From positions 1-43,624 of IMG/VR virus record IMGVR_UViG_3300028586_000007: DNA of 43,624 nucleotides. One strand, written 5' to 3'. The notes under the pieces are model-generated. The model was not told the origin of the DNA, searched no databases, and saw nothing but the letters and a program-made list of their open reading frames with translations. The position numbers and the translations under genes are program-made. Below are positions 24,121 to 43,624 of the stretch, in pieces. Positions within the stretch are counted from its first letter, which is position 1; every line of letters begins with the position of its first letter. The stretch is from a virus (lineage: Duplodnaviria > Caudoviricetes).

Positions 24121-24306
24121 ATGGACGCCCGCACCGTCGCCTGGCTCGCAAAGTTGCGTGCCGAGGCGGAGGTGCCCGGCACCATCCTGGTGTGCGCAGG
24201 TCAACTGCGCATGCTCCCCGAAGACATAGTCGGCAAGTCCGACGACGAGCTGCTCGCCCACGTGCGCGCGCTGCTCGAAAACGAAAACAAGGCCCACTCC
24301 GCATGA
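24121..24306 (+). CDS. Hypothetical protein
   Basis: Coupled to the next gene. Confidence 0.6.
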   Translation: MDARTVAWLAKLRAEAEVPGTILVCAGQLRMLPEDIVGKSDDELLAHVRALLENENKAHSA

Positions 24307-25718
24307 AAGTCGTCGACCGTCTCCGCCAATCGTTCAACGCCACCAGCACTGCAACCATCACCCTGGGCGGCGCCGTCACTGGCTTCCGCACAATCGCGGA
24401 GGCGATCGCCCATGGCGACCTGGCGATTGGCGACGAGGTGCCAATGTGCGTCGAGAGCGGCCCTTCGTGGGAACTGAGCCTGTACAGGGTCGATAACCCG
24501 ACCCAGTTGACCCGCCTCGAGGTGCTGGCCAGTTGGACCGGCGGCGCGGCGGTGACGTTTCCCGGTGGCCTGAAGCAGATCTTCTGCGCAGCGCCGGCGC
24601 AATACCTGAATGGCATCCAGGTAGGGGCGCTGCCGGTGCAGTCCATTGCCGACGCGACACGCCTGCTGGCCCTGAATCCGTCGAATGAAGCATTCCTGGT
24701 CACGGCGGCAGTGCTGAAGGCATACATCGGCGGCACTTCCCCGCCAGCGGACAGCACTGCGCCGGGCGCGCCGACGAACCTGGCCTCAACGAACGCCGGC
24801 CAGACTGGCTACACCATCACCTTCACGCCCGGCACCGACAACGTCTCCGTGGCGCGCAGCGAATGGAGCCTCGACGGGTCGACCTGGACGCCAGTCGGCG
24901 GCGGCGCAACCGGCAACACGTTCGGCGTCACCGGCCGCACGGCCGGCAGCACCGACACCGTCCGCGTCCGGATGGTGGACACCTCTGGCAACCCGTCGCC
25001 CGTGGCCACCTTGCCTGTCGTGTTGCAGTCGGCCGGTGGAAATGCAACGCCGGTCATGTCCGGCAGCATCACCAAGACCAACATCACGTCGAGCGGCTAT
25101 ACGTTCGCATGGGATGCGCCGACCGATGCGAATGGCAACGGCAGCAAGGTGCAGAGCAGCGTCGACAGCGGCAGCAGCTGGGTCGACCATGCGTTCGCAG
25201 CCGGCAGCCGCACCGTCACCGGCCGCGCCGCCGGCAGCACCGACCAGCTGCGCGTGCGCGCGGTCGACACGGCAAACGCAATCTCGAACGTGCTGAGCGA
25301 CAGCGTGACCATGTTGAATGGCGCGCCTGCAGGTGACGTTTACAACTATTTGACAAATGAAAGCTACACGTTCTTCCCCGCAGACAGGGTTCATTCGGGT
25401 GGTGCTTACATCGATCCAGGTAGCGCCGTCGTATTGAAAATTACGCGAAAGGACAACGGCTTGGCCCCAGTTGGCACGCTGGTGTTTGCATGGGCCAAGA
25501 TTGGTGGGCAGGCCGCAGACGGTGTGGGTACGCAGCACCTCGGGGATTGGCAGGATGGTCAGACCACTCACGAGCACTACGCTAAATTTGGCGTCACGAG
25601 CACCCTGTACCTTTGGGGCACCCCCGGCCAGTATCGGCTGGCTGTGATTCTCCCAGACGGCTCGATTGAATACGTCAAAAACCCTGACGGCACCCTGCGC
25701 CTGTGGACGCTCTCGTGA
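24303..25718 (+). CDS. Virion protein with two fibronectin type III domains
   Basis: DSTAPGAPTNL...TDN..V...G...G....VRVR.VD..GN.S and a second similar unit; Thr/Gly-rich. Confidence 0.8.
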   Translation: MKVVDRLRQSFNATSTATITLGGAVTGFRTIAEAIAHGDLAIGDEVPMCVESGPSWELSLYRVDNPTQLTRLEVLASWTGGAAVTFPGGLKQIFCAAPAQYLNGIQVGALPVQSIADATRLLALNPSNEAFLVTAAVLKAYIGGTSPPADSTAPGAPTNLASTNAGQTGYTITFTPGTDNVSVARSEWSLDGSTWTPVGGGATGNTFGVTGRTAGSTDTVRVRMVDTSGNPSPVATLPVVLQSAGGNATPVMSGSITKTNITSSGYTFAWDAPTDANGNGSKVQSSVDSGSSWVDHAFAAGSRTVTGRAAGSTDQLRVRAVDTANAISNVLSDSVTMLNGAPAGDVYNYLTNESYTFFPADRVHSGGAYIDPGSAVVLKITRKDNGLAPVGTLVFAWAKIGGQAADGVGTQHLGDWQDGQTTHEHYAKFGVTSTLYLWGTPGQYRLAVILPDGSIEYVKNPDGTLRLWTLS

Positions 25719-27382
25719 TGAAGCCACTTATCATCAATTCGCGGCTGTTCATTCTGGAGGCCGGGTTCCTGACCGCCAATGGCGCTGTTTCGCAGCCTGG
25801 CGGGCCGGAGTCGATCACCGCCGACCCCTTCAAGCTTGGCAACAGCAAAGCGCGCTTCATCATGCAGCGCAAGGCCGGCACCTACAACGACACGATTGCC
25901 GGCCAGGCTGGAACCTACGACCCCATCATCGCCTATGGCTTCGAAGGTTCGCCTCCTGCCAGCGTGCAGGCGCGCGCTGTGGACTTCACCACCGGTGCCG
26001 AAGTGAAGGGTTGGACCACCCTGACCGGAAACACCATCTCCGGCCAGCAGGGACAGGGGCGGTTGCCAGGGGTTCCGAGCGGTTGCGATTACCGTTTGCA
26101 GATCCGCGACCCGAGCCGCCCAACCGTGATCTACAGCGGCACGGTCATGTGGGGCGTGGGCGTGGTCGGCGGTTCTTTCGGTCAGTCGAACAACCTGGGT
26201 ATCCTGGCGGCCGGGTCATACAACGATGCCGTCCCTGGTGTCGGCAAATCGGAATACGACTACATAATCGACATCAGGGCATCACATGGTTTTTACGGAA
26301 CCTATGGCCCGGTCGTTCCTCAGGGTCTCGGCGGCTCTGGGGCGGATTACGGCACCCATCAATTCAATCTCGCGCGTGGAGGCGCGATCAAGTTCCCGCG
26401 CGTACTGTCGAAGGCGTTGGAGGCAAAGCACGGTCGTCGAATCCCGGTGGCCCTGATCCCCTGCGCCGTGGATGGACGAGCTATCGAGGATTTCATTCTG
26501 CCCGATGGTGGTCTGGTAAAAGCCCTCTTCAACAACAGCGGCATGTCGGGCGGTTCTTTCGGCCTAAGGTCGCCGAATATGGGCGATTTCGAGTTCGTGC
26601 AGAAGCACCAAGGCGAAGCGAATAACGGCAATGAGCGCGCCGTCTATGCCGCAAAAGAGCGTCAAATGGTCGATGGCTATCTGGAGCACGTTTCGTCGCA
26701 TGGTCGCGCGCCCGGTCAGTTCAACTACATTCCCGGCGTGCTGGGCGTCTATTCTGGTCTCAGTCTGATCGAGAAAATCCGCAGTGCCACGCTTGATGTC
26801 GTCGCGTACTCGAAGGCTAATGCGTGGGCCAATGTTGTACCGTTCAACTGCATCGACCTGGACCCATCCGACGGTGGAGATGCAAACCTGCATTTCCTCG
26901 ACCAGCCAAACGGCGGCCCACGCTATCAGGAGTGGGGCCTATGCCGCGCGATCCAATCCGTGCTGTTCAGCATGGGATTGGCGCCATTCGACGGCATGGG
27001 TCCGAAGGTCACTACCTACACGCGCGCCGGCAACGTCGTCACGTTCGAAGTGCTCGGCGCACAAGGGGCGCTCGTCGCGCGCAAGCCGGGCGAGCCGATC
27101 ACCGGCTGGTATGCGAACACCCAAGCCGACTTCAAGGGCGCAGCCACCGCTGTTTCGGTGGCGATCGTGGGCAACAAGATCGTGTTGACCTTTCCGGCCG
27201 GCACCTTCGACAACGGTAAGAAGGCGTATGTGAAGCACTGCGGCGGCGATCCCGGCACGCAACAAAGCTGCCATCCGGACGTCAGCAACCTGGTGTACGA
27301 CAGCGCGCAGTACCCAAGTGCGGAGCCGAAGTTCACCGGCCTGCCATTCTGGCCGATCCCTGATGCCCTGGAGGTGGTCTGA
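25718..27382 (+). CDS. SGNH / sialate-O-acetylesterase (SASA)-like carbohydrate esterase
   Basis: GQSN, QGEAN and late D..LH motifs. Confidence 0.75.
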   Translation: MKPLIINSRLFILEAGFLTANGAVSQPGGPESITADPFKLGNSKARFIMQRKAGTYNDTIAGQAGTYDPIIAYGFEGSPPASVQARAVDFTTGAEVKGWTTLTGNTISGQQGQGRLPGVPSGCDYRLQIRDPSRPTVIYSGTVMWGVGVVGGSFGQSNNLGILAAGSYNDAVPGVGKSEYDYIIDIRASHGFYGTYGPVVPQGLGGSGADYGTHQFNLARGGAIKFPRVLSKALEAKHGRRIPVALIPCAVDGRAIEDFILPDGGLVKALFNNSGMSGGSFGLRSPNMGDFEFVQKHQGEANNGNERAVYAAKERQMVDGYLEHVSSHGRAPGQFNYIPGVLGVYSGLSLIEKIRSATLDVVAYSKANAWANVVPFNCIDLDPSDGGDANLHFLDQPNGGPRYQEWGLCRAIQSVLFSMGLAPFDGMGPKVTTYTRAGNVVTFEVLGAQGALVARKPGEPITGWYANTQADFKGAATAVSVAIVGNKIVLTFPAGTFDNGKKAYVKHCGGDPGTQQSCHPDVSNLVYDSAQYPSAEPKFTGLPFWPIPDALEVV

Positions 27383-27915
27383 TGCTCGGAATGTATGCGA
27401 ACGGAGAGCTGGCCCTGGGCGAGATGCCAGCGATTCAAACACAGCCGCCGGACCCGGGCGACGGTGTGGTCGACGCGATCGACATCCCTAAGTCGCGCGT
27501 TGTCGAGTTCGGTGGCGGATCCCGTGTCGTCACCTTCGGCGGCGGCACTCGGGTTGTCACATTCGATGTCCCATGGAACGGACGAAGCAAAGGAAATAAC
27601 ATGACGAATGCACCAGAGCCGTATTTCAAGGACGGCAAGTGGTGGGTCGACAAGGACCCGGACGAGCAAAGCTTCTATGTGGCGAACGTCACAAAAGAGC
27701 TGGCCGATCGCGGCACCACAGCCGTCTCGGTTGAGCCGGTGGTAGAGGGTGTCGAGATCCTGATCCAGCCGCAGATCCAGGGCTCGTTCGTGGTGATCAA
27801 GCTGGGCGGCATGGATGTCACCGCTGGCGCCGAGAACTACTGGACCGCGCGCGTGACCTGCGCCAATGGCGAGCGCTTCGACCGCACCATGCACTTCAAC
27901 AGGGTGGACAACTGA
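27382..27915 (+). CDS. Putative fibre adaptor protein (KDP-type C-terminal beta domain)
   Basis: DKDPDEQ.FY...T..VTC.NG...DRT; possible internal start at 27601. Confidence 0.6.
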   Translation: MLGMYANGELALGEMPAIQTQPPDPGDGVVDAIDIPKSRVVEFGGGSRVVTFGGGTRVVTFDVPWNGRSKGNNMTNAPEPYFKDGKWWVDKDPDEQSFYVANVTKELADRGTTAVSVEPVVEGVEILIQPQIQGSFVVIKLGGMDVTAGAENYWTARVTCANGERFDRTMHFNRVDN

Positions 27916-28166
27916 TGATCAACGTGAACGACATCCCTGCGGTGCGCGCCCTGGTCGAGCAGCACGCCGGCGCGAGTAGCTCCGGTACCGCGCCGGCCGC
28001 GGCGGCGCCAGCCCAGGGCGGCGCAACGATGGTTCAGGTGGCCGAACTTCCGGCAGTGCGCGCGCTGCTCGAGCAAGTCGACGCGCCCGCGGAGCCGCAG
28101 TACGCTCGTGCGCCGGCGGGCAATGGCCACGAAGCCGCCATTCGGCAACCAGGTGGTGCTCCATGA
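27915..28166 (+). CDS. Hypothetical protein with a duplicated motif
   Basis: PAVRAL.EQ occurs twice; coupled. Confidence 0.6.
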   Translation: MINVNDIPAVRALVEQHAGASSSGTAPAAAAPAQGGATMVQVAELPAVRALLEQVDAPAEPQYARAPAGNGHEAAIRQPGGAP

Positions 28167-40028: not shown

Positions 40029-40053
40029 AAGCCCGCTTCGGCGGGTTTTTTTT
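40029..40053 (+). terminator. Intrinsic terminator
   Basis: aagcccgc-ttcg-gcggg followed by eight T. Confidence 0.85.
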
Positions 40054-40072: not shown

Positions 40073-40306
40073 ATGTCAAAAATGAGCGGCCCCGAGGTGG
40101 GCAGCTACGCCGGTGGCGCAGTGTCCGTCAGCGCGGCCTTCACGTTGACCGAATTCGGCGTCGCGGTCGGCATCATCACCGCGCTGCTGACGTTCGCGTT
40201 GAACACTTGGTACACCCGGCAGAAAAACGCGCGCGAGCAGCGCCTGGCCGACCTCGACATCCGCGAACGCGAGGTACGCCTTGCGCAGCTGGAGGCCGCG
40301 AAATGA
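40073..40306 (+). CDS. Holin
   Basis: Hydrophobic segment(s) ending ..NTWY, charged tail; M-S-K-M possible dual start. Confidence 0.8.
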   Translation: MSKMSGPEVGSYAGGAVSVSAAFTLTEFGVAVGIITALLTFALNTWYTRQKNAREQRLADLDIREREVRLAQLEAAK

Positions 40307-40803
40307 CGCCGATCCGCCTCCTGCGCACCGCGATCATCCCGGCCCTGGCCGCGCTGGCGCCCTACGGGATCCGCGACGGCGCCGACGCCAGGCGGATCCT
40401 GCTGGCGATCGCAATTCAAGAATCCGGGCTCCGCCACCGACGCCAGGTCGGTGTTGGCGGCGCCGAGACCGGTCCGGCGTCGTCTTTCTGGCAGTTCGAA
40501 GCTGGCGGCGGCTGCAAGGGTGTGCTGTCCCATAGCCTGACCGCGCAGCGCATGCGCGAGCTGTGCAACGACTTCAACGTCACCCCGACGCCGCAGGGCC
40601 TGTGGGAAGCGATGCGCTACCAAGACATCGTCGCCGCGATCGCCGCGCGCCTCCTGATCTATACGCTGCCGCAGCAGCTGGCCACCACCGCCGAAGAAGG
40701 CTGGGCGCAGTACCTCGCCGCCTGGCGCCCGGGGAAGCCGCACCTCTCAACCTGGGCAGGCGCCTGGGCAACCGCAACCGAAACTGTGAAGGAAATCGCA
40801 TGA
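40303..40803 (+). CDS. Putative endolysin (lysozyme-like)
   Basis: AIAIQES...RRQ...GPA..FWQFE...W..Y...WRPGKP; coupled to the holin. Confidence 0.75.
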   Translation: MTPIRLLRTAIIPALAALAPYGIRDGADARRILLAIAIQESGLRHRRQVGVGGAETGPASSFWQFEAGGGCKGVLSHSLTAQRMRELCNDFNVTPTPQGLWEAMRYQDIVAAIAARLLIYTLPQQLATTAEEGWAQYLAAWRPGKPHLSTWAGAWATATETVKEIA

Positions 40804-40910
40804 AGAAGCGCACCCTGGTGCTGGCGCTGCTGATCACTCTGGCCGGCTGCGCCAACGTCACCGTCAAGGCCACTTTCCAATACCCCGCGCCGGCGGCGGT
40901 CGCTAAATGA
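40800..40910 (+). CDS. 36-aa lipoprotein
   Basis: MKKR, hydrophobic core and LAGC lipobox; AAGGA RBS; ATGA overlaps at both ends. Confidence 0.75.
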   Translation: MKKRTLVLALLITLAGCANVTVKATFQYPAPAAVAK

Positions 40911-41368
40911 AGCGCAAGGCCGAGTTCCTCACGGTGCTGGAAAACGGTCCGCTCGACGACACGGGCTTCGCGCTGCTGACGGCGAAGCTGGTCTATTTCT
41001 CGGCGAAAGCCGGACAGCAGTTCGAGGCGCTACCCGGGTTTCGCACGAATTTTGTTACCGGCCGCAAGTTGCTGGTGGTGCGCCGCATCGTGCAGGACAC
41101 GATGAACCCGGCGGCTGTCATCCACGACCAGCTGTACGACACCGGCGAGGTGAGCCGCGCGCTGGCCGACGAGGTCTTCCTGGAGGCGATGCTGGTTTTA
41201 GGCGTCGCTGGTTGGCGAGCTTACGCGGCCTACGCCGCCGTACGCGCGTTCGGCTGGAAGTTTTACCGTGCTGCGCCGGCGATCGGGGTGGAGAAGAACC
41301 CGGTGCGCCAGATCGAGCGGCAGTCCGAACTCGAACAGCGCTCGGGCGCCAGCAGCAACGCCATGTGA
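40907..41368 (+). CDS. DUF1353-like protein
   Basis: PGF.T, AAVIHD.LY, R..AD.VFLEAM, Y.AVR.FG. Confidence 0.8.
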   Translation: MKRKAEFLTVLENGPLDDTGFALLTAKLVYFSAKAGQQFEALPGFRTNFVTGRKLLVVRRIVQDTMNPAAVIHDQLYDTGEVSRALADEVFLEAMLVLGVAGWRAYAAYAAVRAFGWKFYRAAPAIGVEKNPVRQIERQSELEQRSGASSNAM

Positions 41369-41492: not shown

Positions 41493-41993
41493 ATGTTTGC
41501 CCCTTCTGCCCGCCACTTTCACGACGAAGACGCAGCTCAACTGTTCTTCGAAAAATGTCTCTGGACTAGCGGGCCGATTTGCCCGCACTGTGGCGGGGCA
41601 ACGCGAATTAATCTAATGAAAGGCAACAGCACACGCAACGGGACTTATAAATGTTACATGTGCCGCAAGCCTTTTACTGTAAAGGTCGGAACTATTTTCG
41701 AGAATTCTCGTGTACCGATGCATACTTGGTTGCGGGCGATCTATCTAATTACATCAGGCGCTGCGGATAGCTCGAACCAGCTCCATTCGCTACTCGGCGT
41801 TACACGGAAAACTGTATCACTCATGGCGCTTCGCATTCACCAAGCGTTGCACGCCAGCTCGAGTGCCTTGCGTAGCTCAGGTATCGATGAAGTCGAGGCA
41901 GGCCGACTTAATTCCCGCACTGCTGATGATGCTTTTGATGATGCGATATTAAAAATCGTCAAGTTATATCAGAGGTGGATGTCGGGACAATAG
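41493..41993 (+). pseudogene. Truncated IS1595-family transposase (zinc ribbon and HTH only)
   Basis: HFHDE.AA...W..GP.CPHCG...YKC..CRKPFTV.VGTIFE.S; no complete DDE domain. Confidence 0.75.
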
Positions 41994-43041
41994 GGTCAGG
42001 AAAATCTGCCTTGAGGACTCTGTCGACGATCCTAGAAAACAGCGCCGTATCTAAAAAATAATTGGGGTACGCCCTTTTGAGCGCATTAATGTCGGCAACT
42101 GAAACTAAGACAACCTGACGTCGAGACCCTTCAGGTATTTGGCTTTCAAGGTCTGTATACTGCCGATTGGCTTCGGCCGATTCTTTGTTTTTAAACCGGC
42201 GTACCGTAACCTTATTGGCATCCGGATCAAGCTCGACAATAAAATACTTTGCGTCTTTCGCTGAGCCGAGCGTATTAAGCGTTGTATTATATGCCCGAAG
42301 CATATCTCTTGCGGTAAGGCTGTCTGCAAGGTCTCGAATTTCCGCAACTAATTCATCCTTAGTCGTCGGCGTGCCCGGAATACAAGGTGTTCGCTCAATT
42401 GAAGCAATGGCAGTACCCATGAGAGAGAAAAAGCGAAGCCAGTCTGCGTCTCCCTGATTCGATTTGAGAGCTTGTTTTGTGAAGATACCTACAGCTTCAA
42501 CGGCTGTTGCCCAAGCGTGCTGTATTTGCGTGCGAACCTGCACTTCAACTCGGAGACCAGAATAGGGGATTCCAGGACCAGAACCGACATATTCATATAC
42601 TAGATGATATGACCTGTACCCGTCAGGTTTCGGGTTTACAATGTAGTCCTTCTCGTTTCGGAACTTGTGGCCAAATTGCGAAGTCTTATAAAGTTCGACT
42701 AGTTTATAGACATCCGCCAACTTATTGAACACTGCACGGCACCCGGCAATGTCCTGCATTTGTGTCATGCGCATTGTCTTTTTAGAGACAAGCTTACGGT
42801 GGATCGAATCGAGTCGTTTTTCCCGCTGGGCGACAATCACGTTCCGCTCAATTCTACGTGCACGATTGCGAAGCGTAATTTGAAATGTGTTAAGCGGATA
42901 AGCATGCGACGAACGCCAATTGTTGATGACGGAAAGCGCGGCGAGGCCTTCTTGCGTTGTCACTGGAAAAGACATTTTCCCGAGAGCCTTCCCGGCCGCA
43001 TTCACTTCTTCGGGTTCATATTCTGGAATTGCCCACGCCAT
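41959..43041 (-). CDS. capRel: CapRel-like fused toxSAS-antitoxin (RelA/SpoT domain) anti-phage protein
   Basis: NWR..H.YPL, R.KR..SI..KL, MQDIAGCR, DYI..PK..GYR..H, EVQVRT..QHAWAT.VE, C-terminal domain ending AYPNYF.DT; low GC. Confidence 0.8.
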   Translation of the reverse strand: MAWAIPEYEPEEVNAAGKALGKMSFPVTTQEGLAALSVINNWRSSHAYPLNTFQITLRNRARRIERNVIVAQREKRLDSIHRKLVSKKTMRMTQMQDIAGCRAVFNKLADVYKLVELYKTSQFGHKFRNEKDYIVNPKPDGYRSYHLVYEYVGSGPGIPYSGLRVEVQVRTQIQHAWATAVEAVGIFTKQALKSNQGDADWLRFFSLMGTAIASIERTPCIPGTPTTKDELVAEIRDLADSLTARDMLRAYNTTLNTLGSAKDAKYFIVELDPDANKVTVRRFKNKESAEANRQYTDLESQIPEGSRRQVVLVSVADINALKRAYPNYFLDTALFSRIVDRVLKADFPDPIVPTSTSDIT

Positions 43042-43120
43042 CTCTACCTCCGTATAGTGGTAGCAGAGTATCATGAAGCCAAGAAAGTGGGTACGTTAAG
43101 TATCGCGAGATAGGAGAAAC

Positions 43121-43480
43121 TTAACCGTGCTCTTCGTCGTGGTCTAGGACCGCAAACTCAATCTGCTCGAGCTTCGCGATAACCGCGACGAGCGACGCCT
43201 TCACCGCCTCGAAGAACGGGCGATGCACTTCGTCCACCACCACCCTGTCCTTGAACTCCGTTTCCCGGTGCAGCCAGATCGTGGTGTCCAGCAGCTCGCT
43301 CAGCGGCGACGCCACCACCAGCACCTGCTCTTCGTCCTGGCCGGCGCCAGCGATTAGCACCGGTAGCGCCGTCTTGAACGGGCCAGCCCGGTCGCTAAAA
43401 TGGTGCACCAGGTTCGGCTCCTGCTGGCCGGCCGAGGGGTCGAATTCGATATCAGGATGCTGCGTGTGTCGGATGAACAT
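43121..43480 (-). CDS. Hypothetical protein next to att
   Basis: 119-aa ORF with phage-like codon usage. Confidence 0.65.
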   Translation of the reverse strand: MFIRHTQHPDIEFDPSAGQQEPNLVHHFSDRAGPFKTALPVLIAGAGQDEEQVLVVASPLSELLDTTIWLHRETEFKDRVVVDEVHRPFFEAVKASLVAVIAKLEQIEFAVLDHDEEHG

Positions 43481-43579: not shown

Positions 43580-43624
43580 CTGGCGGAGAGAGGGGGATTC
43601 GAACCCCCGGTAGGCTATGAACCT
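43580..43624. repeat. Right att core
   Basis: Identical 45-bp copy of 1-45. Confidence 0.95.
43581..43624 (-). tRNA. 3' half of a tRNA, probably tRNA-Ser (5' half outside the window)
   Basis: Minus strand reads AGGTTCATAGCCTACC-GGGGGTTCGAATCCCCC-TCTCTCC-G-CCA: long variable arm, T-arm with GTTCGAATC, G discriminator and CCA. The anticodon is not visible. Confidence 0.8.

Follow-up and report, generated by a model that had tools for sequence, protein, structure and literature searches.

The window, the whole 43,624-nucleotide stretch of DNA analysed here, is a 100% complete record with terminal repeats. It represents the 43.6-kb genome of a temperate phage, whose genes include an integrase, a repressor and those for an HK97-type head and a long tail. 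Massilia or a close relative is the probable host, given that an endolysin named in Massilia is 77% identical and that Massilia sp. X63 (L003) has a near-identical lipopeptide. The late operon terminates in genes for a holin, a probable endolysin, a lipoprotein of 36 amino acid residues and a DUF1353 protein. The initial annotation had described four genes chained by ATGA overlaps, and the three overlaps coupling the four ORFs were confirmed. The features are:

40029..40048, plus strand: terminator-like hairpin that separates the lysis cassette from the last tail gene (consensus match only)
40073..40306, plus strand: holin of 77 aa (74 aa if started at 40082), with one strong transmembrane segment (TM) and a charged C-terminal tail
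40303..40803, plus strand: probable endolysin, 166 aa, phrog_3108 family, assigned from homologs and position
40800..40910, plus strand: micro-lipoprotein, 36 aa, with an LAGC lipobox, a 16-aa signal, Cys17 and a 20-aa mature peptide
40907..41368, plus strand: predicted DUF1353 phospholipase A2 of the TtaP class, 153 aa, PF07087, with H73/D74/D88 and without a signal peptide

Consensus matching returned three terminator-like hairpins, compared with 1.8 in shuffled sequences.

The holin is supported by the PHROGs families phrog_4237 (E = 1e-8) and phrog_20 (E = 3e-8) and matched PF16080 with E = 3.5e-5, under the cut-off. The second protein had neither a Pfam match nor a PDB sequence match, and its family, phrog_3108, carries the PHROGs label 'unknown function'. 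By tblastn it matches genes annotated as lysozyme or endolysin, with 36–43% identity to those named lysozyme, genes of its family adjoin holins in related loci, and its nearest named Atlas clusters are SLT at 0.84–0.85, which is a lead only. Homologs, lead and position make it a probable endolysin, likely with a lysozyme/lytic-transglycosylase fold.

The predicted lipoprotein would mature to 20 residues, as initially annotated. The mature peptide contains an 11-residue stretch of alternating hydrophobic and polar residues with a Tyr at its end. Among 17 relatives, the Cys, Asn+3 and Tyr+12 are invariant (17/17) and the alternation between them is kept; in the second locus sample described below, five more divergent members were seen by eye to share this pattern. 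The 180-degree (beta) moment of the 11-mer had p = 0.009 in 5000 shuffles, and other variants gave p = 0.007–0.11. In E. coli, an Asp at position +2 governs the sorting of lipoproteins. The micro-lipoprotein carries an Ala at +2, and hence is predicted to be sorted to the outer membrane; Asp at +2 was likewise absent in all 65 adjacent lipoprotein calls. Against the Rz-like spanin and Cor PHROG profiles, the 36-aa peptide produced weak matches (E = 8e-4 to 0.06), half of the matched stretch being signal peptide. Micro-lipoproteins as a group also scored weakly against the Cor profile phrog_1119 (E = 3e-6 to 4e-3), with matches that span the first 19–40 of its 78 positions, mostly signal peptide; the peptide of the window covers positions 1–20 only, and relatives reach at most 1–38. 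The likeness to colicin lysis proteins proposed in the initial annotation found no support in Pfam, where the colicin lysis family did not match at E = 0.1 and only LPAM_1 and UPF0257 appeared at E up to 0.1. The peptide has the lipobox of a u-spanin and no C-terminal TM.

The last ORF affiliates with DUF1353 (PF07087, E = 1.3e-14; 54 bits against a curated cut-off of 22.5). Its motif, H73-D74-x2-Y77...D88, had been likened to the His-Asp active site of phospholipase A2 (PLA2), and the likeness holds: TtaP, a DUF1353 protein, was shown to be a PLA2 with residues H70, D71 and D85 (Gartly et al. 2024, PMC11525133). H73, D74 and D88 of the window keep the same spacing (His, Asp at His+1, Asp at His+15). 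His, Asp, Tyr and Asp were invariant in 45/45 and 43/43 aligned DUF1353 proteins, and a simple pattern recovered the His+15 Asp in 112 of 153 DUF1353 loci. The AlphaFold model (pLDDT 86) comprises helices at residues 64–79, 84–97 and 102–119. In a Foldseek search, its two highest-probability rows were bacterial PLA2s, 8k1w (probability 0.93, rmsd 2.6 over 64 columns) and 7ygk (probability 0.80), but with E-values of 0.5 and 0.8; nothing was retrieved at E = 0.001. We therefore predict from sequence that the protein is a PLA2 of the TtaP class, a resemblance already in print at the family level. PHROGs assigns DUF1353 to phrog_1158, 'tail assembly chaperone' (E = 3e-21), a label that is probably wrong for these members. 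The family also extends to chromosomes. Many genomes of the family to which genome G001 belongs have a subfamily of about 185 aa whose genes follow two small membrane-transporter genes, in no phage context (L188, L262, L265, L266, L268-L272, L275-L277). One chromosomal DUF1353 protein (L182:1249-1893) is predicted to be a lipoprotein in its own right, with lipid anchor and phospholipase in a single fusion.

The absence of an Rz/Rz1 pair and of a u-spanin, claimed in the initial annotation, was borne out by strict and relaxed six-frame lipobox scans of the complete genome. These returned a single credible lipoprotein, no i-spanin/o-spanin pair and no lipoprotein with a C-terminal TM. A separated i-spanin was sought elsewhere in the window and not found, and no type II membrane protein with a coiled-coil periplasmic domain and an overlapping or adjoining lipoprotein was present. 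The N-terminal helix of the endolysin was the only i-spanin flag in the window and was dismissed by eye.

The recurrence of the lipoprotein and DUF1353 genes was followed in two samples of DUF1353 loci. The first comprised 218 loci, reduced to 172 by dereplication at 90%, to 147 after removal of 25 dereplicated chromosomal loci (non-phage subfamilies) and to 95 counted loci after removal of 52 with too little flank; the second comprised 59 loci, of which one was dropped. The window itself (L092) was excluded. Since the loci were picked by similarity to the protein of the window and are rich in Massilia-type prophages, their counts are not independent. In the stricter first count, a solo lipoprotein adjoined DUF1353 in 28/95 loci, compared with 6/362 control genes from the same loci. 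With a relaxed lipobox, adjacent solo lipoproteins were found in 31/95 loci of the first sample and 30/58 of the second, together 61 of 153 dereplicated loci. Adjacency was enriched where an endolysin lay within 2 kb (20/42 vs 8/53 without). The endolysins 5' of the block belong to at least six types (phrog_3513, phrog_7, phrog_894, phrog_315, phrog_181 and phrog_3108).

A survey of 110 genomes of the genus of G001 yielded 22 DUF1353 matches, of which 16 belong to lysis cassettes of prophages. In 13 of these a lipoprotein gene precedes DUF1353 (an insertion sequence interrupts one of the cassettes), in two DUF1353 directly follows the endolysin and one is decayed. None of the 3-kb loci of these 16 cassettes contained Rz/Rz1. 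All 12 full-length micro-lipoprotein matches in the 110 genomes directly precede DUF1353; ten of the 12 were in the profile, so what counts is the lack of matches at any other site. Viral scans anchored on the lipoprotein added six loci, with DUF1353 as the next gene in five and not in one, and the micro-lipoprotein occurred with DUF1353 in both new viral loci (2/2). In L311, a 94-aa lipoprotein is followed by another gene and the contig stops 300 bp later. Lipoprotein and DUF1353 thus form a real, recurrent lysis module.

The partner lipoproteins belong to many unrelated families with 19–163 mature residues. On a tree of 85 DUF1353 tips, built from a short alignment, the micro type needs 8 changes compared with 21 for shuffled labels; as far as this tree indicates, the type is clustered, yet has been swapped repeatedly. 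A strict co-evolution of lipoprotein and lipase was ruled out, as a given lipoprotein type occurs with more than one DUF1353 subtype, and a given subtype with more than one lipoprotein type. Complex prediction for the micro-lipoprotein of a relative (32 residues) and its DUF1353 protein scored 0.00, which is no answer either way. The free swapping of partners between lineages points to a coupling that is probably functional rather than a fixed complex.

Several variants accompany these loci. Seven adjacent lipoproteins (13 by family) have a hydrophobic C-terminus and may be u-spanins. Two families of 120–140 residues with hydrophobic C-termini, a periplasmic Cys and no PHROG names (L255, L317-L321, L326, L334, L336, L338, L355, L371, L375) are candidates for new u-spanin families. 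L047, L070, L081 and L330 encode a holin-like TM pair followed by an in-frame internal lipobox upstream of DUF1353, possibly a fusion or a nested start. In L261, L322, L331, L354, L070, L081 and L238, the lipoprotein is followed by an Ala-rich protein of 70–100 aa, with DUF1353 next except in L238; the two may constitute a further two-gene module.

For the search for spanins around these loci, a profile of Rz from related phages recognised only 3/7 spanin controls and was too insensitive to show absence. It was therefore replaced by a topology detector for Rz/Rz1, which found 14/18 known pairs; its flags L007, L091, L331, G535 and G541 were rejected by eye as false spanins. With this detector, Rz/Rz1 was found within 2 kb in 0/61 lipoprotein+DUF1353 loci versus 4/92 other DUF1353 loci. 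The exclusion within the DUF1353 loci is not significant (Fisher p = 0.15) and the contrast of lipoprotein+DUF1353 loci with the endolysin-anchored set gives p = 3e-6, both values ignoring kinship. No credible spanin pair was present anywhere in 14 records that are at least 95% complete and carry lipoprotein+DUF1353, six of them with the micro type.

The endolysin-anchored set consisted of 48 loci, whose 3' genes were classed by eye. Behind the endolysin were Rz/Rz1 in 14 loci, PF11351-like or 173-aa membrane proteins in 29, lipoprotein+DUF1353 in three and other genes in two. No cassette of the 48 combines two of Rz/Rz1, PF11351-like protein and lipoprotein+DUF1353. When 41 records of this set were searched whole, DUF1353 was found only in the two with lipoprotein+DUF1353, and in 0/13 Rz/Rz1 records. 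Judged by gene order, the block occupies the position where related cassettes carry Rz/Rz1. The PF11351-type cassettes (29/48) have an ordinary holin upstream in most cases and no Rz/Rz1 was seen in them. In L194-L237 (e.g. L203:4498-4911, L208:4501-5019, L252:1031-1450), the endolysin is followed by a PF11351 'GTA 3TM holin' or a similar 173-aa protein (phrog_1544), with the family confirmed for three proteins only. The PF11351-like protein may carry the holin label wrongly and represent a further outer-membrane module.

DUF1353 itself is found in mixed company. It adjoins Rz/Rz1 in L064, L343, L366 and L390 (4/153 loci), co-occurs with PF11351-like proteins in L252 and L339, and lies beside an endolysin without a lipoprotein in many loci (e.g. 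L172, L173, L315, AH02, Bjorn). No endolysin was detected within 2 kb in 53 of 95 DUF1353 loci. Twenty annotated phage regions were hand-picked from tblastn lists, which comprised 287 records in the case of the broader query, and in 12 of the regions DUF1353 is among lysis genes. It occurs with Rz/Rz1 in four (Bas80, Seuss, phiPMW and an Aquificae virus), with a solo lipoprotein in three (DMCA, NrS-2 and Carin1) and, where both lipoprotein and Rz/Rz1 are absent, with an endolysin (known or likely) in five; it lies among tail genes in four and elsewhere in four. The gene follows tail-fibre genes in Mae-JY29, SNW-1, S2B and COL 5-PUJ. Its associations with Rz/Rz1, with an endolysin alone and with possible u-spanins make DUF1353 a gene linked to lysis in general, which does not replace a spanin on its own. 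As to the mutual exclusivity with spanins that the initial annotation suggested testing, the lipoprotein+DUF1353 block never occurred with Rz/Rz1 (0/61 loci, 0/14 near-complete records), whereas DUF1353 as such did (4/153 loci, 4/20 regions). Routine co-occurrence with spanins, which that annotation had named as evidence against its proposal, was encountered for the phospholipase family and not for the block. These comparisons point to the lipoprotein, not the phospholipase, as the part that excludes Rz/Rz1.

We propose, with a probability of about one half, that in this spanin-less cassette the lipopeptide weakens the outer membrane and the phospholipase, released by the holin, completes the break, once holin and probable endolysin have done their part. 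The 20-residue lipopeptide, without Asp at +2, would reach the outer membrane and accumulate late in infection. Its amphipathic beta-strand would pack into the bilayer, probably as oligomers, and weaken it. The signal-less 17-kDa phospholipase would stay latent in the cytoplasm until the holin lesion releases it along with the endolysin, and would then cut phospholipids of the inner leaflet of the outer membrane. Lysolipids and lipopeptide together would rupture the outer membrane, and fusion of inner and outer membrane would not be needed. Latency until lysis fits with the traits of TtaP, which lacks a signal peptide, stays with the cells, shows activity in lysates and causes no overt envelope damage while cells are intact (PMC11525133). 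Against the proposal speak the loci with DUF1353 beside Rz/Rz1, those with an endolysin but no lipoprotein or with tail genes around DUF1353, the partner lipoproteins that may be u-spanins, the high Foldseek E-values and a ttaP deletion that had no envelope phenotype (PMC11525133).

The proposed system shares features with several known ones. As with lambda Rz/Rz1 and u-spanins (T1 gp11), it takes the last position in the cassette and includes a predicted outer-membrane lipoprotein. Unlike them, it has no i-spanin and no C-terminal TM, and an enzyme gene follows the lipoprotein; the lipopeptide is, unlike spanins, not proline-rich at its start and too short to span the periplasm. Colicin lysis proteins act with the outer-membrane phospholipase A of the host, so that a tiny lipopeptide and a phospholipase activity open the envelope. 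There the lipase is a host beta-barrel, whereas the window encodes a predicted soluble PLA2 of the phage, plus holin and endolysin. In mycobacteriophages, the lipolytic enzyme LysB is part of the lysis cassette and acts on the outer lipid layer. LysB differs from the DUF1353 protein in fold, substrate and host envelope, and has no lipoprotein partner. A beta-strand-like mature region, as in the micro-lipoprotein, is described for u-spanins by Kongari et al. (2018, PMC6139136). The disruptin phiKT gp28 is likewise small and disrupts the outer membrane for a phage that lacks spanins; it is described as a cationic antimicrobial peptide (10.1101/515445), whereas the peptide of the window is a lipoprotein with two mature Lys residues, a beta pattern and a lipase partner.

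In the strongest alternative, which we regard as unlikely, the lipoprotein would stand in for the spanin unaided, either as a disruptin with a lipid anchor or as a minimal, TM-less u-spanin. The phospholipase would then have an accessory role under any outer-membrane system, hastening lysis or freeing the progeny of membrane debris. This would agree with the occurrence of DUF1353 alongside Rz/Rz1, PF11351-like proteins and possible u-spanins, with the exclusion of Rz/Rz1 by the lipoprotein and with the eight micro-type changes on the DUF1353 tree. It would also agree with the 31 genomes that have a lipoprotein but no i-spanin in Kongari et al. (PMC6139136). An independent spanin substitute would, however, be expected to occur alone, as Rz/Rz1 does in 13/13 records, and the micro-lipoprotein was never found without DUF1353 in the genomes and new viral loci searched (12/12 and 2/2).

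Less probable by a clear step is that the phospholipase breaks the outer membrane on its own and that the lipoprotein is a late receptor blocker of the Cor/Llp type, or an exclusion protein, that keeps progeny off cell debris. Cassettes with endolysin and DUF1353 but neither lipoprotein nor spanin do exist (AH02, Bjorn), the complete record G568 has no spanin pair and no lipoprotein in its cassette, and the micro-lipoproteins score weakly with the Cor profile. Those scores, however, derive mostly from the signal peptide, the 20-residue peptide is far shorter than the profile, and a receptor blocker would have no reason to exclude Rz/Rz1. Least probable of all is that DUF1353 is a tail assembly or virion protein, or that the hosts need no outer-membrane step, so that the pair has no role in lysis: the phrog_1158 label, the four phages with DUF1353 behind tail-fibre genes and the 53 loci without a detected endolysin speak for it, but the catalytic residues are invariant, one family member has shown PLA2 activity, translation of the gene is coupled to that of the preceding holin, endolysin and lipoprotein genes, with a terminator-like site separating the tail genes, and 12 of the 20 annotated regions place it among lysis genes.

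A wider reading of the combined action of lipopeptide and PLA2 is put forward more tentatively than the mechanism itself. It may be an enzymatic, fusion-free route across the Gram-negative outer membrane, apart from spanins and disruptins, that is used by many betaproteobacterial and other phages; DUF1353 would then be a mis-annotated lysis gene, and the route would explain part of the spanin-less 13% and of the genomes with a lipoprotein and no i-spanin. According to Kongari et al. (2018, PMC6139136), 91 of 677 genomes have no spanin and 31 have an orphan lipoprotein; the word phospholipase is absent from that paper. The TtaP protein and that of the window share the Pfam family, the catalytic spacing and the lack of a signal peptide. 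The ttaP gene lies in a bacterial toxin islet rather than a phage lysis cassette, and this islet also encodes a muramidase related to prophage muramidases (PMC11525133). The same paper treats prophage DUF1353 proteins as a filtering issue only and does not contain the words spanin or lipoprotein. The combination of lipoprotein and DUF1353 in lysis was not found in the literature searched, chiefly the main text of freely accessible papers, in which four further papers that mention DUF1353 have titles unrelated to lysis; Table S1 of the TtaP paper, on domain fusions of DUF1353, may be relevant here. The enzyme class is hence known and the recurring module apparently unpublished.

As a candidate for the way in which phages without spanins get through the outer membrane, the module has two genes in 570 bp, offers a defined catalytic mutant and suits the standard lambda complementation assay. 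If the proposal is true, a widespread phage family labelled 'tail assembly chaperone' would be re-annotated. The module also suggests a lysis-cassette origin for TtaP, and the 20-residue lipopeptide would offer a minimal model for outer-membrane perturbation.

Further observations concern the rest of the genome. Four large genes at 24303-28166, between those for the capsid and the head-tail adaptor, carry no annotation, and no classical lambdoid tail-tip genes were recognised in the phage genome. A lower-GC insert downstream of the cassette contains an IS1595-type zinc-ribbon fragment (41493-41993, plus strand) and a RelA/SpoT-domain protein (41959-43074, minus strand; PF04607, E = 3e-21; phrog_4773), possibly a defence or toxin moron. 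At the right end of the window, opposite the integrase at the left end, a tRNA-like fragment (43580-43624) is probably the attachment site; ARAGORN detected no whole tRNA gene in the window. A 119-aa gene without a family match (43121-43480, minus strand) recurs just 3' of the lysis cassettes of related prophages in L003, L095, L200 and L203.
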